DNA of 28,081 bases from a virus, in IMG/VR virus record IMGVR_UViG_3300029953_000630. One strand, written 5' to 3'. Every line of letters starts with the position of its first letter. Positions within the stretch are counted from its first letter, which is position 1. The notes under the pieces were generated by a model. It saw nothing but the letters and a program-made list of their open reading frames with translations. It had not been told where the DNA came from and ran no database searches. The position numbers were made by a program, and so were the translations under genes. Below are positions 15,466 to 25,325 of the stretch, one piece after another.

Positions 15466-15478
15466 CCCGGTATACTGT
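15466..15478 (+). promoter_or_regulatory. Conserved promoter-like motif CCCGGTATACTGT (-10-like TATACT)
   Basis: One of three near-identical copies (15466, 19576, 25311). Each lies 22-25 nt upstream of a start codon with a strong RBS. Confidence 0.45.
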
Positions 15479-15498
15479 GATTGGAGAGAAGAAACCAC

Positions 15499-17907
15499 AT
15501 GAAACTAGGAACCGCAGGTAGTGCAATGGAAGTTGGTGGGGCATTAACCCGCCCCAGAGCATTCTCGTTCAACAACAGTGCTTTGGCTTTCAAGCTCTTT
15601 TCGTCGGGCATCTACAATAGCAAGATTGAAGCTATCCTCCGCGAATTGGCTTGCAACGCCAGGGACGCTCATGTCGCTGCTGGCAAAGCCGACACACCTT
15701 TCGAGATTCACCTGCCTACCGCTTTCGACCCGACCTTCCGCCTTAATGACTTCGGCACTGGCCTGAAGTACATCGAGGGGGGCTGCAAACAGTGCCATGG
15801 TGTTGGTCTTGTAGAGACCCAGCACGGTGATACCCCCTGCCCCGACTGCGACGGCACTGGCGACTATGATGCCGTCATTAGCCTGTACTGCATCTACTTC
15901 GCCAGCGACAAGAACGACTCCAATGAGTTCATCGGTGCCATGGGCATCGGCTCCAAGAGCCCCTTCTGCTATGACGAAAAGGGCGGCGGATTCTCTATCA
16001 CCAACCGCTACGAGGGTGTCACCCGCATCTATCAGGCAGCGGTACACAATGGCTTCCCCACGGTCGTCCTTCAGAGCAAGGAGGATACCCCGGACTCCCC
16101 CAATGGGGTGGAAATTTCCCTCCCGGTAAAGATTGGTGACATCTGGGAGTTTGAGAACAAGGCACGTAGTGTGTTCGAGTTCTTCTCCCCGTTGCCGATT
16201 TTCAACAAAGAAATTTCGATAAACAAACAGATTTACACCATCAGAACCGAGAAGTGGGGTCTGCGTGACAACACCGTCAGCACCATCAGCGGTCTCCGGG
16301 CGATTCAGGGCATCGTGCCCTACGATGTGGGCGACATCGACATCAGCCGCATGAATACCCACCAGCGGCGTATCAGCGAGATGGAGTTGGATATCTTCCT
16401 CCCGATTGGCGACTTGGAAGTTACCGCTTCCCGCGAGTTCATTCAGTTGGACGAACGTACTGTCGGCAACATCCTGAAGGCTCTAGACGGGGTTCATGAG
16501 GGGATGTTGGAGGAAATCAAGAAGAAGATTGACCAGTGCGCTGCTGTCTGGGAAGCACGGCTCCAGATTTACGACCTGACTTCGCGAGGCGGAAGCCTCG
16601 GCAAGATTGTCAACGATGCCTACAACAACGGTCTACTCTTGGGCAACTACAGCCACTTCACCATGAGCGATGAGATGGCCGTGGTCAACAAATCCGACTA
16701 TGAGGGCATTCAGCTCACTCAGTACAGCTACAATTTTCGGGCTGAGAAGAGAGCCAAGAAGGAATCACTGTTCTCCTTCAACGCCGCGTCTGTCAAAAAC
16801 ATGCGTGACCGCATCGCAGAAGACCCGACATGCCGCAAGAACTACGATGTACGGGTGGAAGTCGAGCCCAAGGTGGCCTTCGTCATCAATGACCTGAAGG
16901 TCTCTGCGGATAAGTACATTGGCTACTTCCTCCAGTGCGCGGTTGACCGTGGCGGCAAGACGTTGGTGTACTGCGTCAATCGTCAGAACAAGTCAGTGGA
17001 CATGAGCACGGTGATGTCGCAGGGGCTCACCATGATGGAGAAGCTTGGCAATCCGCCTGTCACCCTCGCTTCCGAGCTGAAGGCACGCTATGGCGAATTT
17101 GTGGACACTCCGCGAGAGAAGGGAGTAGCCATCCCCCGCCAACGCCGCAACGTCTCGGTACTGGTGAACGAAGTGCCCCACCCCCGCCGTGGCAGCGCGG
17201 GCTGGGCGAAGGCTTGGGACAAGGCTGACAACGATGTCATCGACCTCCCCGGCATGAAGTATTACGTCATTACGGATGGCAGTGGCTCCGGCCACGAGTC
17301 CACGGGGTTCTACAAAGCCCGGGAGTTCGTGAGGTTTGTCAATTCGGTTCGCGAGTCGAACCTTCTGGATGTTCCGGTCTACGGTCTGAAGGCTAACTCG
17401 AAGCTGATTGAAGGTGCTGATTGGAAGCCCTACATGCCAGCGGTCTGGGCGGCTGTCAAGAAGCACATGACCCCGGCTCGTGAACAGCGCATGACCATGG
17501 TGGATTGCATTGGCAACTTCTCTACCAGTTGGGATTTCGTGTTCGATTACATGACCGAGCACCCCATGGACGCAGAGAGCCCGGTACAGCAGTTCGTAGT
17601 CAAATTGAATAAGGCCAAGGAGAGCCGCACTAAGGCGGAAGGCACTGCGTTGCAGAGCGTACTTCAGGTAGCCGCCGCCCGTAATAAGTACACGATGCCG
17701 CAGCGAGTGGTTATCGACTTCGGGAAGAAGTGGGATGAAGTAAAAGAATTCTACCCGATGATGAAATATACTGGCCGTTCTAGCTGGATGGCTGGTACAA
17801 TAGAGGAAGCGGTGGTAGTAACCAACTACTTCAAGCTGGAAGATGCGAATCGTGAAGCACAGTCCAGCATTAACGATAACATCAAGGAGATGACCGCATA
17901 TGTCTAA
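15499..17907 (+). CDS. GHKL-type ATPase domain protein with DnaJ-like CxxCxGxG zinc finger (~803 aa)
   Basis: N-box ILRELACNARDAH (E-L-x-x-N-A-x-D-A). G1 box NDFGTGL (DxGxG). CKQCHGVG...CPDCDGTG repeats. ATG at 15499 with RBS GGAGAGAAG. Confidence 0.6.
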   Translation: MKLGTAGSAMEVGGALTRPRAFSFNNSALAFKLFSSGIYNSKIEAILRELACNARDAHVAAGKADTPFEIHLPTAFDPTFRLNDFGTGLKYIEGGCKQCHGVGLVETQHGDTPCPDCDGTGDYDAVISLYCIYFASDKNDSNEFIGAMGIGSKSPFCYDEKGGGFSITNRYEGVTRIYQAAVHNGFPTVVLQSKEDTPDSPNGVEISLPVKIGDIWEFENKARSVFEFFSPLPIFNKEISINKQIYTIRTEKWGLRDNTVSTISGLRAIQGIVPYDVGDIDISRMNTHQRRISEMELDIFLPIGDLEVTASREFIQLDERTVGNILKALDGVHEGMLEEIKKKIDQCAAVWEARLQIYDLTSRGGSLGKIVNDAYNNGLLLGNYSHFTMSDEMAVVNKSDYEGIQLTQYSYNFRAEKRAKKESLFSFNAASVKNMRDRIAEDPTCRKNYDVRVEVEPKVAFVINDLKVSADKYIGYFLQCAVDRGGKTLVYCVNRQNKSVDMSTVMSQGLTMMEKLGNPPVTLASELKARYGEFVDTPREKGVAIPRQRRNVSVLVNEVPHPRRGSAGWAKAWDKADNDVIDLPGMKYYVITDGSGSGHESTGFYKAREFVRFVNSVRESNLLDVPVYGLKANSKLIEGADWKPYMPAVWAAVKKHMTPAREQRMTMVDCIGNFSTSWDFVFDYMTEHPMDAESPVQQFVVKLNKAKESRTKAEGTALQSVLQVAAARNKYTMPQRVVIDFGKKWDEVKEFYPMMKYTGRSSWMAGTIEEAVVVTNYFKLEDANREAQSSINDNIKEMTAYV

Positions 17908-19132
17908 CCTACAGGCAGCAGTACCCTACATCATGACGCCCGATTTCGTATCGGTAATCGTCAGAGGACGCTCGTTCCAGTTGGTTCCCAGCCACCCGAC
18001 ATTCAAGCAGGTGGTCGCTGCCCTGAAGGCAAAGGCGTGGGCGAAGATTCCGAAACTGGTCTCGCTGGCGGAGCAGATTGCCAACCAAAGCCACGGCCAC
18101 GTCAAGATTGAAAGGGGTCTGGTGACATACAAAGGCCGCGAAGTCAACTCGACTCTGACCAAGCGGATGCTTGAACTCATCGACCACGGTCAGCCTGTGG
18201 CTTCGCTGCTGAAGTTCATGGACAACCTGTACAAGAACCCGCAGCCGGAAGCTATCTCTGAGTTCTACGAGTGGCTGATGGATAACGAGTTGCCGATCTA
18301 TGACGACGGTACCTTCGCGGCGTATAAGTACGTCCGTGACGACTACACGGATACCCACACGGGTACCGTACTGAACACACCCGGCGAAATCATCATCACT
18401 TCCCGCAACCTGGTGGACGCCAACTGGCGGACGCAATGCGCCTCAGGCTACCACGTGTGCTCGAAGAAGTATGGCACGTATGGTTCGAAGTGCATGGAGG
18501 TGAAAATTCACCCGCGTGATGTCCTCTCGGCCAACGGTGGCAAGATGCGTGTCACCCGCTACGAAGTCATGAGAGAACTTGGTAACAAGGACGAAATCGA
18601 GTTCACGGCTGAGGGCTACGCTGAGTTGGAGGGTAAGGGCGTGCTGGCTATTAACAAGGAACGTCGCGACCTGATTAAGGCTTTGACCTCGCTCCCGGCT
18701 GTAAAGCGTCTGGTGCGTAACAAGAAGCTGAACCCCAAGTCATTCCGTAAGGCATCACTGGTTCGTTTGCAGAGTTGGCTCACGAAGTTCGGCGAGACGG
18801 TTCCGGTGGAACAGTCCAAGCTGTTCGAGAACCCGCTTCGCCCCGCACGTGTGGCGGCTAAGCTGACCACTTCGCAGGTGGCAAAGGCCATGGACGTGTC
18901 CACGGCTGAGGCATACAACCTCGAACGCAAGAAAAACCCCACACAGGACGAGATTGACTCGTATCTCGAAGGAATCATCGCTCTGACTAAGGCTGCCGGG
19001 GTTGCTTACCCAACACCTGCGTCAGCAGTCCCGGAGGAAGATGAGCGCGTCGATCTGGGCGAGCCCTCCGACGAGGAAGATGAGTACGAGGAAGATGAGG
19101 ACTGTGACGAGGAAGACGACGGGGGTTACTAA
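17900..19132 (+). CDS. Hypothetical protein with poly-acidic C-terminus (410 aa)
   Basis: Start overlaps the previous stop (ATGTCTAA). C-terminal EEDERVDLGEPSDEEDEYEEDEDCDEEDDGGY. Confidence 0.55.
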   Translation: MSNLQAAVPYIMTPDFVSVIVRGRSFQLVPSHPTFKQVVAALKAKAWAKIPKLVSLAEQIANQSHGHVKIERGLVTYKGREVNSTLTKRMLELIDHGQPVASLLKFMDNLYKNPQPEAISEFYEWLMDNELPIYDDGTFAAYKYVRDDYTDTHTGTVLNTPGEIIITSRNLVDANWRTQCASGYHVCSKKYGTYGSKCMEVKIHPRDVLSANGGKMRVTRYEVMRELGNKDEIEFTAEGYAELEGKGVLAINKERRDLIKALTSLPAVKRLVRNKKLNPKSFRKASLVRLQSWLTKFGETVPVEQSKLFENPLRPARVAAKLTTSQVAKAMDVSTAEAYNLERKKNPTQDEIDSYLEGIIALTKAAGVAYPTPASAVPEEDERVDLGEPSDEEDEYEEDEDCDEEDDGGY

Positions 19133-19171
19133 CAATTCGGGGTAGTCCATTCTCCTTCTACCCTGCCCGAA

Positions 19172-19204
19172 CCGGGAGCCGTACAGGGCTCCCGGTTTAT
19201 TTTG
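19172..19204 (+). terminator. Rho-independent terminator
   Basis: Stem CCGGGAGCC / GGCTCCCGG, loop GTACAG, followed by TTTATTTT. Confidence 0.6.
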
Positions 19205-24982: not shown

Positions 24983-25010
24983 GCCGGGGATTAACCTCCC
25001 CGGCTTTTTC
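24983..25010 (+). terminator. Rho-independent terminator
   Basis: Stem GCCGGGG / CCCCGGC, loop ATTAACCT, followed by TTTTT. Confidence 0.65.
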
Positions 25011-25020
25011 TAGGAGAAGT

Positions 25021-25257
25021 ATGGCGATATTTTGGTGGTGGCTTTTGGAAGCGGTGATCGCATTTTATTTGTATCAGAAAGCATGGCGGTATGGCCGGTA
25101 TGGCAGGGATGTGACTTTGGCTGACGCTCTCCGGTTTGTTTTCCTATCTCTCATCCCTGTCCTTAGCCTTTTCGGTGCGTTTTTCTTTTTTCTTGATGTA
25201 TGGTCATATGATGGCAAACTCAAGGTTGTCCTCTGGAAAAAATACAATGACTCATAA
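25021..25257 (+). CDS. Small membrane protein (78 aa, two predicted TM helices)
   Basis: MAIFWWWLLEAVIAFYLY and LSLIPVLSLFGAFFFFL hydrophobic stretches. RBS AGGAGAAG upstream. Confidence 0.5.
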   Translation: MAIFWWWLLEAVIAFYLYQKAWRYGRYGRDVTLADALRFVFLSLIPVLSLFGAFFFFLDVWSYDGKLKVVLWKKYNDS

Positions 25258-25310
25258 ATGGCGTTCATTGCTCCGCGTTTGAAAATTAATGTTAGACAAA
25301 CCCGGTGAGT

Positions 25311-25325
25311 CCCGGTATACTGTAA
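25311..25325 (+). promoter_or_regulatory. Conserved promoter-like motif CCCGGTATACTGTAA (preceded by a partial duplicate CCCGGTGAGT)
   Basis: Followed by RBS GGAGGG and the ATG at 25342. Confidence 0.45.

Follow-up and report, generated by a model that had tools for sequence, protein, structure and literature searches.

Candidate sigma-70-type promoters precede rIIA, Ku and other genes in an uncultivated lineage of large phages

In Escherichia coli, UP elements such as that of rrnB P1 are A/T tracts lying between -59 and -38, with a distal and a proximal subsite, which are bound by the C-terminal domains of the RNA polymerase alpha subunits. Promoters giving rise to leaderless mRNAs are known from lambda PRM-cI and from many actinobacterial, Deinococcus and mycobacteriophage genes. 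The early promoters of phage T4 are 'uber' promoters that combine UP, -35, TGn and -10 elements, are read by the host sigma-70 holoenzyme and share an extra phage-specific consensus, and the T4 middle promoters, including PrIIA, PrIIB1 and PrIIB2, carry a MotA box, (a/t)(a/t)(a/t)TGCTTtA, at 12 +/- 1 bp from the -10 element (PMC2988021). Here, we analyze a recurring element, CCCGGTATACTGT(A/G)A, in a 28,081-bp stretch of DNA from an uncultivated large phage (IMG/VR record IMGVR_UViG_3300029953_000630; the whole stretch is referred to as the window). As judged from sequence, the element probably represents the end of the spacer, the -10 region and the discriminator within a complete promoter of the sigma-70 family.

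The pattern CCCGGTATACTGTRA occurs exactly three times in the whole window, always on the + strand (Table 1), against a chance expectation of 0.07, and none of 100 dinucleotide shuffles reached three copies. The repeat described by an earlier reading of the letters alone (the sequence-only reading) is thus borne out, with three exact copies directly 5' of the rIIA, Ku and 241-aa genes. The distance to the start codon, given there as 22-25 nt, is 20-24 nt when counted from the TATACT hexamer and 16-20 nt when counted from the end of the 15-mer. The shorter 8-mer GGTATACT is found four times in the window, again only on the + strand, with the fourth occurrence at 2563-2570.

Copy 1 precedes an ATG at 15499. 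The gene described in the sequence-only reading as a GHKL ATPase does follow the motif there, but its identity is that of an rIIA homologue (phrog_612, E 1e-98), with rIIB next; its closest rIIA matches are at 24-32% identity. Copy 2 is followed by Ku (PF02735, ATG 19611) and copy 3 by a gene for a 241-aa protein (ATG 25342) to which homology assigns no function. The intergenic gaps holding copies 1, 2 and 3 measure 74, 51 and 84 bp, and we infer three transcription units, led by rIIA (in an operon with rIIB), by Ku and by the 241-aa gene, each of the latter two including the genes that follow. These are not the genes most strongly equipped with ribosome-binding sites, as had been proposed: the duplex energies of their Shine-Dalgarno (SD) sequences with the anti-SD are only -6.4, -9.3 and -9.8 kcal/mol, whereas genes lacking the motif reach -12.4 (start 9270), -12.1 (22504) and -10.8 kcal/mol (21022).

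No match to GenBank phages was obtained in a near-identity search with the 15-26 kb region. Contigs of the same sequence are present in about 20 JGI/ENA metagenome assemblies, presumably from peat-bog samples. Other contigs of the window phage are 100% identical at promoter 1 and therefore provide no footprinting information.

The three copies of the motif do not stand by themselves. Although no -35 element had been evident to the sequence-only reading, a TTGACA-like hexamer, TAGCCA in promoter 1 and TAGACA in promoters 2 and 3, precedes each TATACT at 17 +/- 1 bp. The -10 hexamer matches TATAAT at 5/6 positions and retains A at position 2 and T at position 6 in all three copies, as well as in 61 sites from related phages described below. 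A/T-rich tracts resembling UP elements lie further upstream; both tracts are seen in the lineage matrix and in copy 1, and the proximal one only in copies 2 and 3. Two further promoter-like sites of the window, in which TTGACA and TTGACAAA stand 18 bp before TATTAT and TAATAT, share this layout, so the TAG(A/C)CA box appears to occupy the true -35 place. A scan of the 10-28 kb region with the plain sigma-70 consensus returned matches at chance level in total (10 versus 10.1 expected), with two of the window sites as the top two and the third tied among the 9/12 matches. Promoter 1 has its -35 box in duplicate: CAATAGCCAAAAA is found on the + strand at 15421-15433 and, 23 bp further on, at 15444-15456. 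The first of the two overlaps with the end of a UVR-domain gene, at its stop codon, and has no -10 element at the right distance.

Table 1 Coordinates of the promoter features in the window
Feature	Position	Strand	Remarks
Promoter 1 (rIIA), A/T-rich UP-element-like tract CCAAAAAAAATCTCTAAAACAA	15425-15446	+	Matches lineage AAAAAATTT..AAAAA; upstream matrix half 29.2 bits
Promoter 1, -35-like box TAGCCAAA	15447-15454	+	TAGCCA 4/6 to TTGACA; spacer 18 bp
Promoter 1, 15-mer CCCGGTATACTGTGA	15466-15480	+	TATACT 15471-15476; GG at -14/-13; SD GGAGAG 15483-15488, its first base being the predicted start (~15483)
Promoter 2 (Ku), proximal A/T tract GCTAAAATTG and -35-like box TAGACAAA	19547-19564	+	Box at 19557-19564; TAGACA 5/6 to TTGACA; AAAATTG tract before box; spacer 18 bp
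Promoter 2, 15-mer CCCGGTATACTGTAA	19576-19590	+	TATACT 19581-19586; SD AAGGAG 19596-19601; predicted start ~19593 (A)
Promoter 3 (241-aa gene), A/T tract TTTGAAAATTAATGT and -35-like box TAGACAAA	25278-25300	+	Box at 25293-25300; TAGACA 5/6 to TTGACA; A/T-rich GAAAATTAATGT before box; spacer 17 bp
Promoter 3, 15-mer CCCGGTATACTGTAA	25311-25325	+	TATACT 25316-25321; predicted start ~25328, first base of SD GGAGGG
Variant of the sequence-only reading, (T)GGTATACT	2563-2571	+	Without -35 box and UP tract; 8 nt past tRNA-Arg (2479-2555)
TTGACA-18-TATTAT (11/12), tRNA region	175-204	+	AAAACAAAGATTTTTCAGAAAAGAA before; same layout, canonical -35; outside the recurring motif
TTGACAAA-18-TAATAT (10/12), tRNA region	6152-6181	+	A-rich tract before, SD and ATG 6200 after; same layout, canonical -35; outside the recurring motif
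TAGACAAT-17-(TG)GTATCTT, weak possible relative	14454-14482	+	5' of ATG 14514; below family-matrix threshold, membership uncertain

To obtain relatives independently of the motif, we used homology to the Ku protein. Syntenic relatives with Ku proteins of 37-41% identity were found in loci L039, L040 and L041 (contigs up to 123-310 kb) and in L037 and L038; these five encode rIIA, rIIB, Ku, a protein resembling the major vault protein (MVP) and a 488-aa protein, at 37-58% identity to their counterparts in the window. A further Ku relative, P0002, is 87% identical to the Ku of the window, and protein patterns derived from Ku and run on IMG/VR retrieved no relative. At orthologous genes, the bipartite arrangement recurs: GAAAAAATTTCTTAATTTAC-TAGCTG-18-TATACT, with an SD sequence after it, before rIIA in L039 (6207), AAAAGTTTTTGAAAAAAG-TATCCA-18-TATACT-AACGGT-ATG at Ku in L039 (10001), TAGCCA-18-TATATT before Ku in L037 (10001), and AAAATTTTTTTCCCAAAAC-TAGCCA-18-TATACT, again with an SD sequence after it, before the 241-aa orthologue in L041 (8602). 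Between the phages, the promoter blocks alone align, the remaining intergenic sequence having diverged. The discriminator of promoter 2, GTAAAC, directly precedes an ATG in the relative L041 (8072). The description of the motif as promoter-like is thereby substantiated, since the relatives, with proteins of just 37-42% identity, keep a bipartite promoter 5' of the orthologous genes.

To follow the element across a larger set of phages, we scanned IMG/VR with the pattern TAGMCAAA-N13/14-GGTATACT. It returned 110 stretches, among them many single matches in apparently unrelated phages, as well as clusters of matches in related contigs: at least five in the 98-kb IMGVR_UViG_3300029913_000009, four in a 13-kb contig and two or three in several others. 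Several of the loci with clustered matches have proteins in common with the window. The exact 15-mer, by comparison, gave just 26 single matches in IMG/VR, which are probably due to chance. We then listed all TATACT hexamers in 24 lineage loci and the window, with no requirement for a -35 box, which uncovered many more sites, their variant boxes (among them ACTAGCTAAA, ACTATCCAAA, ACTAACCAAA and TCTAGACTAA) being beyond the reach of the scan pattern. In the 24 lineage loci plus L151, a longer contig of the window phage, 61 of 113 non-redundant TATACT have a box with at most two mismatches from TAGCCA at 17-19 bp, where chance would give about 11%, about half of the lineage loci in this count having been ascertained with the pattern.

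A matrix built from 45 non-redundant sites of the relatives only, with the hexamer set at -12 to -7, yielded the lineage consensus AAAAAATTT..AAAAAC-TAGCCAAAAC-N12-GG-TATACT, in which the TAGCCA box lies at -36 to -31 with an 18-bp spacer and each G at -14/-13 is present in 86% of the sites. Conservation extends to positions for which the sites had not been selected, namely AAAAAATTT at -55 to -47, AAAAA at -42 to -38, C at -37 and AAAC at -30 to -27. The CCC and GT of the 15-mer are weakly preferred in the relatives. Scanning the window with this matrix, and allowing the spacer to vary by 1 bp, returned exactly three sites, promoter 1 at 47.6, promoter 2 at 29.4 and promoter 3 at 20.9 bits, with no other above 12 bits; the best score in 100 shuffles was 12.6.

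The same phage carries further sites. In L151, about 8.6 kb past the end of the window, a fourth copy reads TAGACAAA-CCCCCGGTACTCCCCG-TATACT-CTGAAT-ATG (L151:19937) and lies 5' of a DNA-ligase-like gene, in the gap beside oppositely oriented tail-fibre-like genes; the matrix scan found no family site at these opposite-strand genes of the extension. A metagenome scan with the signature of the window phage, TAGACAAA-N10/11-CCCSGTATACT (TAGACAAA...CCCGGTATACT), recovered the known copies and, in the same sample series, at least four other distinct sites, of which three have N6-ATG after the hexamer. The sequence-only reading would have failed if the motif were absent elsewhere in the genome; the matrix and pattern scans place it both beyond the window and across the lineage.

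Family membership did not hold for the variant that had been noted before a small open reading frame (ORF) at 2587. The site itself, TGGTATACT at 2563-2571 on the + strand, exists, but the upstream half of the matrix gives it a score of -17 bits. As it begins 8 nt after a tRNA-Arg gene, its -35 region falls inside the tRNA. At most, it could serve the 55-aa ORF at 2587 as an extended -10 promoter.

The position of the start codon in the relatives provides a proxy for the transcription start. In 19 of the 61 lineage sites (~31%), the hexamer is followed by N6-ATG, opening ORFs of 46-501 codons (cut-off at least 40), while a spacing of N5 occurs in none and N7 in one; a second group of 13 sites has the ATG at 16-21 nt, preceded by an SD sequence. 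As the sharp TATACT-N6-ATG peak comes without SD sequences, which is the signature of leaderless mRNAs, transcription would start 7 nt after the hexamer. The start proposed earlier, about 7 nt past TATACT, agrees with this peak, which is a sequence proxy drawn from relatives only. By analogy, transcription in the window would start at the positions predicted in Table 1, giving leaders of 14-18 nt that begin at the SD sequence. The window copies themselves are not leaderless, with 20-24 nt between hexamer and ATG and an SD sequence present; the fourth copy at L151:19937 formally is, with an ORF of just 20 codons. A literature search on the motif in connection with leaderless phage genes returned nothing relevant.

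The fixed spacing also bears on an explanation at the level of RNA. The roughly constant distance of 20-24 nt to the start codon would suit a translational operator or processing site in the 5' untranslated region (UTR), and a functionless repeat, arisen by chance or recent duplication, could account for three copies that are exactly identical over 15 nt. Either origin is extremely improbable. The motif lies mostly upstream of the predicted start, and in relatives with the hexamer 6 nt from the ATG there is no UTR left in which such an element could act. Folding of the leaders and promoter regions revealed no structure, with energies the same as those of shuffles (z-scores -0.5 to +0.5), and Rfam matched no family at the promoter sites, detecting tRNAs alone. 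With z-scores near 0 and only tRNAs in Rfam, we rejected the RNA element. Chance was excluded by the failure of all 100 shuffles to reach three copies together with conservation at orthologous genes of ~40% protein identity.

We therefore consider the elements to be, with fair probability, strong sigma-70-type promoters read by a bacterial holoenzyme, most likely with the host primary sigma, and probably early ones. The alpha C-terminal domains of RNA polymerase would bind the A/T-rich tract (about -55 to -38), and sigma region 4 the -35-like TAG(A/C)CAAA box. A spacer of 17-18 bp, ending in GG at -14/-13, would lead to the -10 hexamer TATACT, which retains the critical A(-11) and T(-7), and transcription would proceed from about 7 nt past the hexamer into short, SD-led leaders. 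Reading by host RNA polymerase with its primary sigma would result in expression during the early, host-takeover phase; early timing is considered probable because the host primary sigma is the most likely enzyme.

Promoters of this form are also found in bacteria. A search for CTAGCCAAA-N13/14-GGTATACT in 185,579 bacterial genomes gave 68 single matches from many phyla, most of them in promoter-like positions; examples are a match in an Eremiobacterota metagenome-assembled genome (L211) that stands 13 nt ahead of a tRNA gene, and conserved orthologous sites in Levilactobacillus and Enterococcus. Since the bacterial matches sit in promoter-like positions, bacterial primary sigmas can evidently use such sequences. 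Multiple matches in one bacterial genome were not seen among the 68, so no host is indicated. The genes served by the family include rIIA/rIIB, a tRNA (L084) and many small ORFs, as well as a gene for a PARP-like protein with a leaderless site, and the same promoter-bearing loci hold genes for peptide deformylase, RNA ligase and homing endonuclease. This set of genes fits an early class. The assignment to a phage-specific middle or late class, put forward in the sequence-only reading, is not supported by the architecture: the sites have a -35-like box, an UP tract and kin promoters with TTGACA, they carry no MotA box, and they are not of the -10-only late type.

Several observations weigh against the reading as early promoters of the host primary sigma. 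Both the early timing and the use of the host primary sigma are inferred from promoter architecture. The box on the -35 side departs from TTGACA at the second T, which is usually important, and comprises about 11 conserved bp (CTAGCCAAAAC), so that its conservation is both greater than, and different from, what sigma region 4 alone usually imposes. In T4, rIIA and rIIB have MotA-dependent middle promoters (PMC2988021). The window copies are alike over 15 nt, including CCC at -17 to -15 and the GT after the hexamer, which the lineage consensus does not demand. The positions of the matrix that were forced by the search are circular, because some of the relatives had been retrieved with a pattern taken from the window sites. 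Lastly, the lineage genomes are covered as fragments, so that the lack of a sigma factor or activator in them is weak evidence.

An alternative is a phage-specific middle class, in which a sigma-70-family factor would read the -10 element and a phage factor, either a MotA/AsiA-like activator or a sigma with an altered region 4, would read CTAGCCAAAAC near -32. The long box, whose T, A, C, A, A and A are near-invariant (0.90-0.97) in many promoters of several phages, and its systematic departure from TTGACA speak for such a factor, as do its overlap with the position of the T4 MotA box, centred at -30, and the middle promoters of rIIA and rIIB in T4. We nevertheless regard this class as unlikely. 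The box does not resemble (a/t)(a/t)(a/t)TGCTTtA and ends 14-16 bp from the -10 element instead of 12 +/- 1 bp, the UP-like element is complete, the window phage has TAGACA (5/6 to TTGACA) and TTGACA itself in the same layout, and identical CTAGCCAAA...GGTATACT sites resemble ordinary bacterial promoters. A tblastn search with regions 2-4 of E. coli RpoD and with T4 gp55 found no sigma-70 or gp55 homologue in the lineage loci, which are genome fragments, and gp55 in unrelated loci only; sigma, RNA polymerase and MotA/AsiA families were likewise absent from the Pfam matches listed (25 of 45 families, from 98 lineage ORFs of at least ~180 aa). The specific proposal that CTAGCCAAAAC (TAGACAAA in the window phage) is the site of a phage-encoded sigma or of a sigma-appropriating activator, and not a plain -35 element, appears doubtful to us. 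If CTAGCCAAAAC were read by a phage factor, these sites would constitute a new phage-specific promoter class, often leaderless, in large phages that encode MVP-like, PARP-like and Ku proteins.

The excess identity of the window copies could also be due to an operator overlapping the promoter, with a repressor or other regulator binding the CCCGG before the hexamer, the GT after it and GGT(A/G) in the spacer one helical turn upstream. This would explain why the window copies are identical where the lineage consensus is free, and why the window copies, like many relatives, have YCGGT(A/G) at 10-11 bp before CGGTAT; GTATAC is, in addition, a 6-bp palindrome. The symmetry stops at 6 bp, however, and no convincing dyad symmetry was found at the motif; the conservation of the spacer is weak (0.2-0.4 bits), and the fourth copy of the window phage has CCCCGTATACTCT instead. 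Such an operator, which we judge very unlikely, would moreover overlie the promoter, not replace it.

The sigma-70-type assignment, which we favor, would provide a usable promoter model for an uncultivated lineage of large phages, comprising an UP tract, TAG(C/A)CAAA, 18 bp, GGTATACT and a start at +7. The model delimits the units in which rIIA/rIIB, Ku and many ORFans would be transcribed, would allow start-codon calls to be corrected at the many leaderless genes, and could help to tie these phages to hosts with a primary sigma that favors promoters of this kind.

The window contains a second motif, GAGTATTA/CAGTATTA, which has no -35 box and is found on the + strand at 1401, 7444, 7513, 8062, 11438, 12414 and 14065, mostly just 5' of ORFs. 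The form RAGTATTR occurs six times where 2.2 are expected, and six were reached in 1 of 100 shuffles. The motif is followed by N6-ATG twice (7513 to 7527 and 14065 to 14079). At the matching position 5' of the 488-aa orthologue, L037 has AAGTATTA (L037:4805 and L037:4626 (-) are listed for this motif) and L039, by eye only, GGGTATTAG. The motif could mark a second promoter class, of the -10-only type and possibly middle or late. Neither the TATACT nor the RAGTATTR class is represented upstream of the 106-aa gene at 19239, which lies between the terminator-like hairpin after rIIB and promoter 2. Intrinsic-terminator-like GC-rich hairpins with T runs are present on the + strand after rIIB (19170-19203), after the MVP-like gene (24981-25011) and after the 488-aa gene (13974-14005).

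The tRNA cluster at 544-9997 comprises 14 distinct loci: ARAGORN found 13 tRNA genes and Rfam also 13, adding one at 3653-3786 and missing the tRNA-His at 1297-1374. Five are tRNA-Arg, and several are unusually long (89-134 nt), possibly owing to introns or insertions. Amid the tRNAs lies a gene (4380-5453, +) for a 357-aa protein with a DALR_1 domain, the anticodon-binding domain of arginyl-tRNA synthetases. A 25-nt repeat, GGAAAGTCTCGGGGTTCGATTGAAA, occurs eight times in the tRNA region with 0-2 mismatches, all on the + strand and with an expectation of 0, at 97-121, 128-152, 6628-6652, 6674-6698, 7249-7273, 7336-7360, 7400-7424 and 7469-7493. By eye, it has the look of a small hairpin with a T-arm-like GGTTCGATT. 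At 7375-7520, it lies within a longer direct repeat of ~69 bp spacing that also bears CAGTATTA.

Downstream of Ku, the window encodes an R2K-clade ATP-grasp protein (21022-21846, +; PF14243, E 6e-18), a weakly PTH2-like (peptidyl-tRNA hydrolase) protein (21945-22373, +) and then an 819-aa protein (22504-24963, +) that matches the major vault protein of eukaryotes in Pfam (MVP_shoulder, E 3.5e-26, and Vault_3) and, over residues 433-802, MVP chains in the PDB (E ~3e-19). In the relatives, the MVP-like gene is conserved at 56% identity and again follows Ku at a distance of a few genes (L037:12799-15414, L041:4721-7276). In one relative, a 98-kb contig encodes a protein with a PARP catalytic domain (L089:4761-6263 (-)) behind a leaderless promoter of the TATACT family. 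The occurrence of MVP-like, PARP-like and Ku proteins in one phage lineage recalls, at the level of sequence, the components of vaults; a literature search on MVP in jumbo phages returned nothing relevant.

Compared with known systems, the family does not match the late promoters of T4, where gp55 reads TATAAATA with no -35 element, whereas the window sites combine TATACT with a -35-like box. With the T4 middle promoters it shares a conserved lineage-specific box over the -35 region, an excellent -10 element and a site 5' of rIIA, but CTAGCCAAAAC/TAGACAAA is unrelated to TGCTTtA, lies at a different distance from the -10 element and resembles a true -35 hexamer, and MotA/AsiA were not among the Pfam matches listed. 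The likeness to leaderless-mRNA promoters is confined to TATACT-N6-ATG in the relatives and at the fourth copy of the window phage, the three window copies having SD-containing leaders. As in the E. coli promoters with UP elements, AAAAAATTT and AAAAA of the lineage stand at UP-subsite distances from the -35 box, but copies 2 and 3 of the window carry the proximal part alone.

The closest analogue, as far as architecture can tell, is the T4 early promoter. Both have a bipartite -35/-10 arrangement, a strong UP-like A/T tract and extra consensus positions kept throughout the lineage, both serve host-takeover or auxiliary genes, and this phage, too, has rIIA/rIIB and tRNA genes. They differ in the -35 element, TAG(C/A)CAAA in this family as against GTTTAC/TTGACA in T4, and in the sequence before the hexamer, where CGG takes the place of TGn, with GG at -14/-13 and only G(-14) shared. 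The TATACT hexamer, the preference for an 18-bp spacer and the many predicted leaderless mRNAs of the lineage, known from sequence alone, set the family further apart. The over-conserved box on the -35 side and the frequent leaderless sites in relatives are the only mildly unusual aspects; in all else, the element is of an ordinary kind, though found in a new phage lineage, and reveals no new mechanism.

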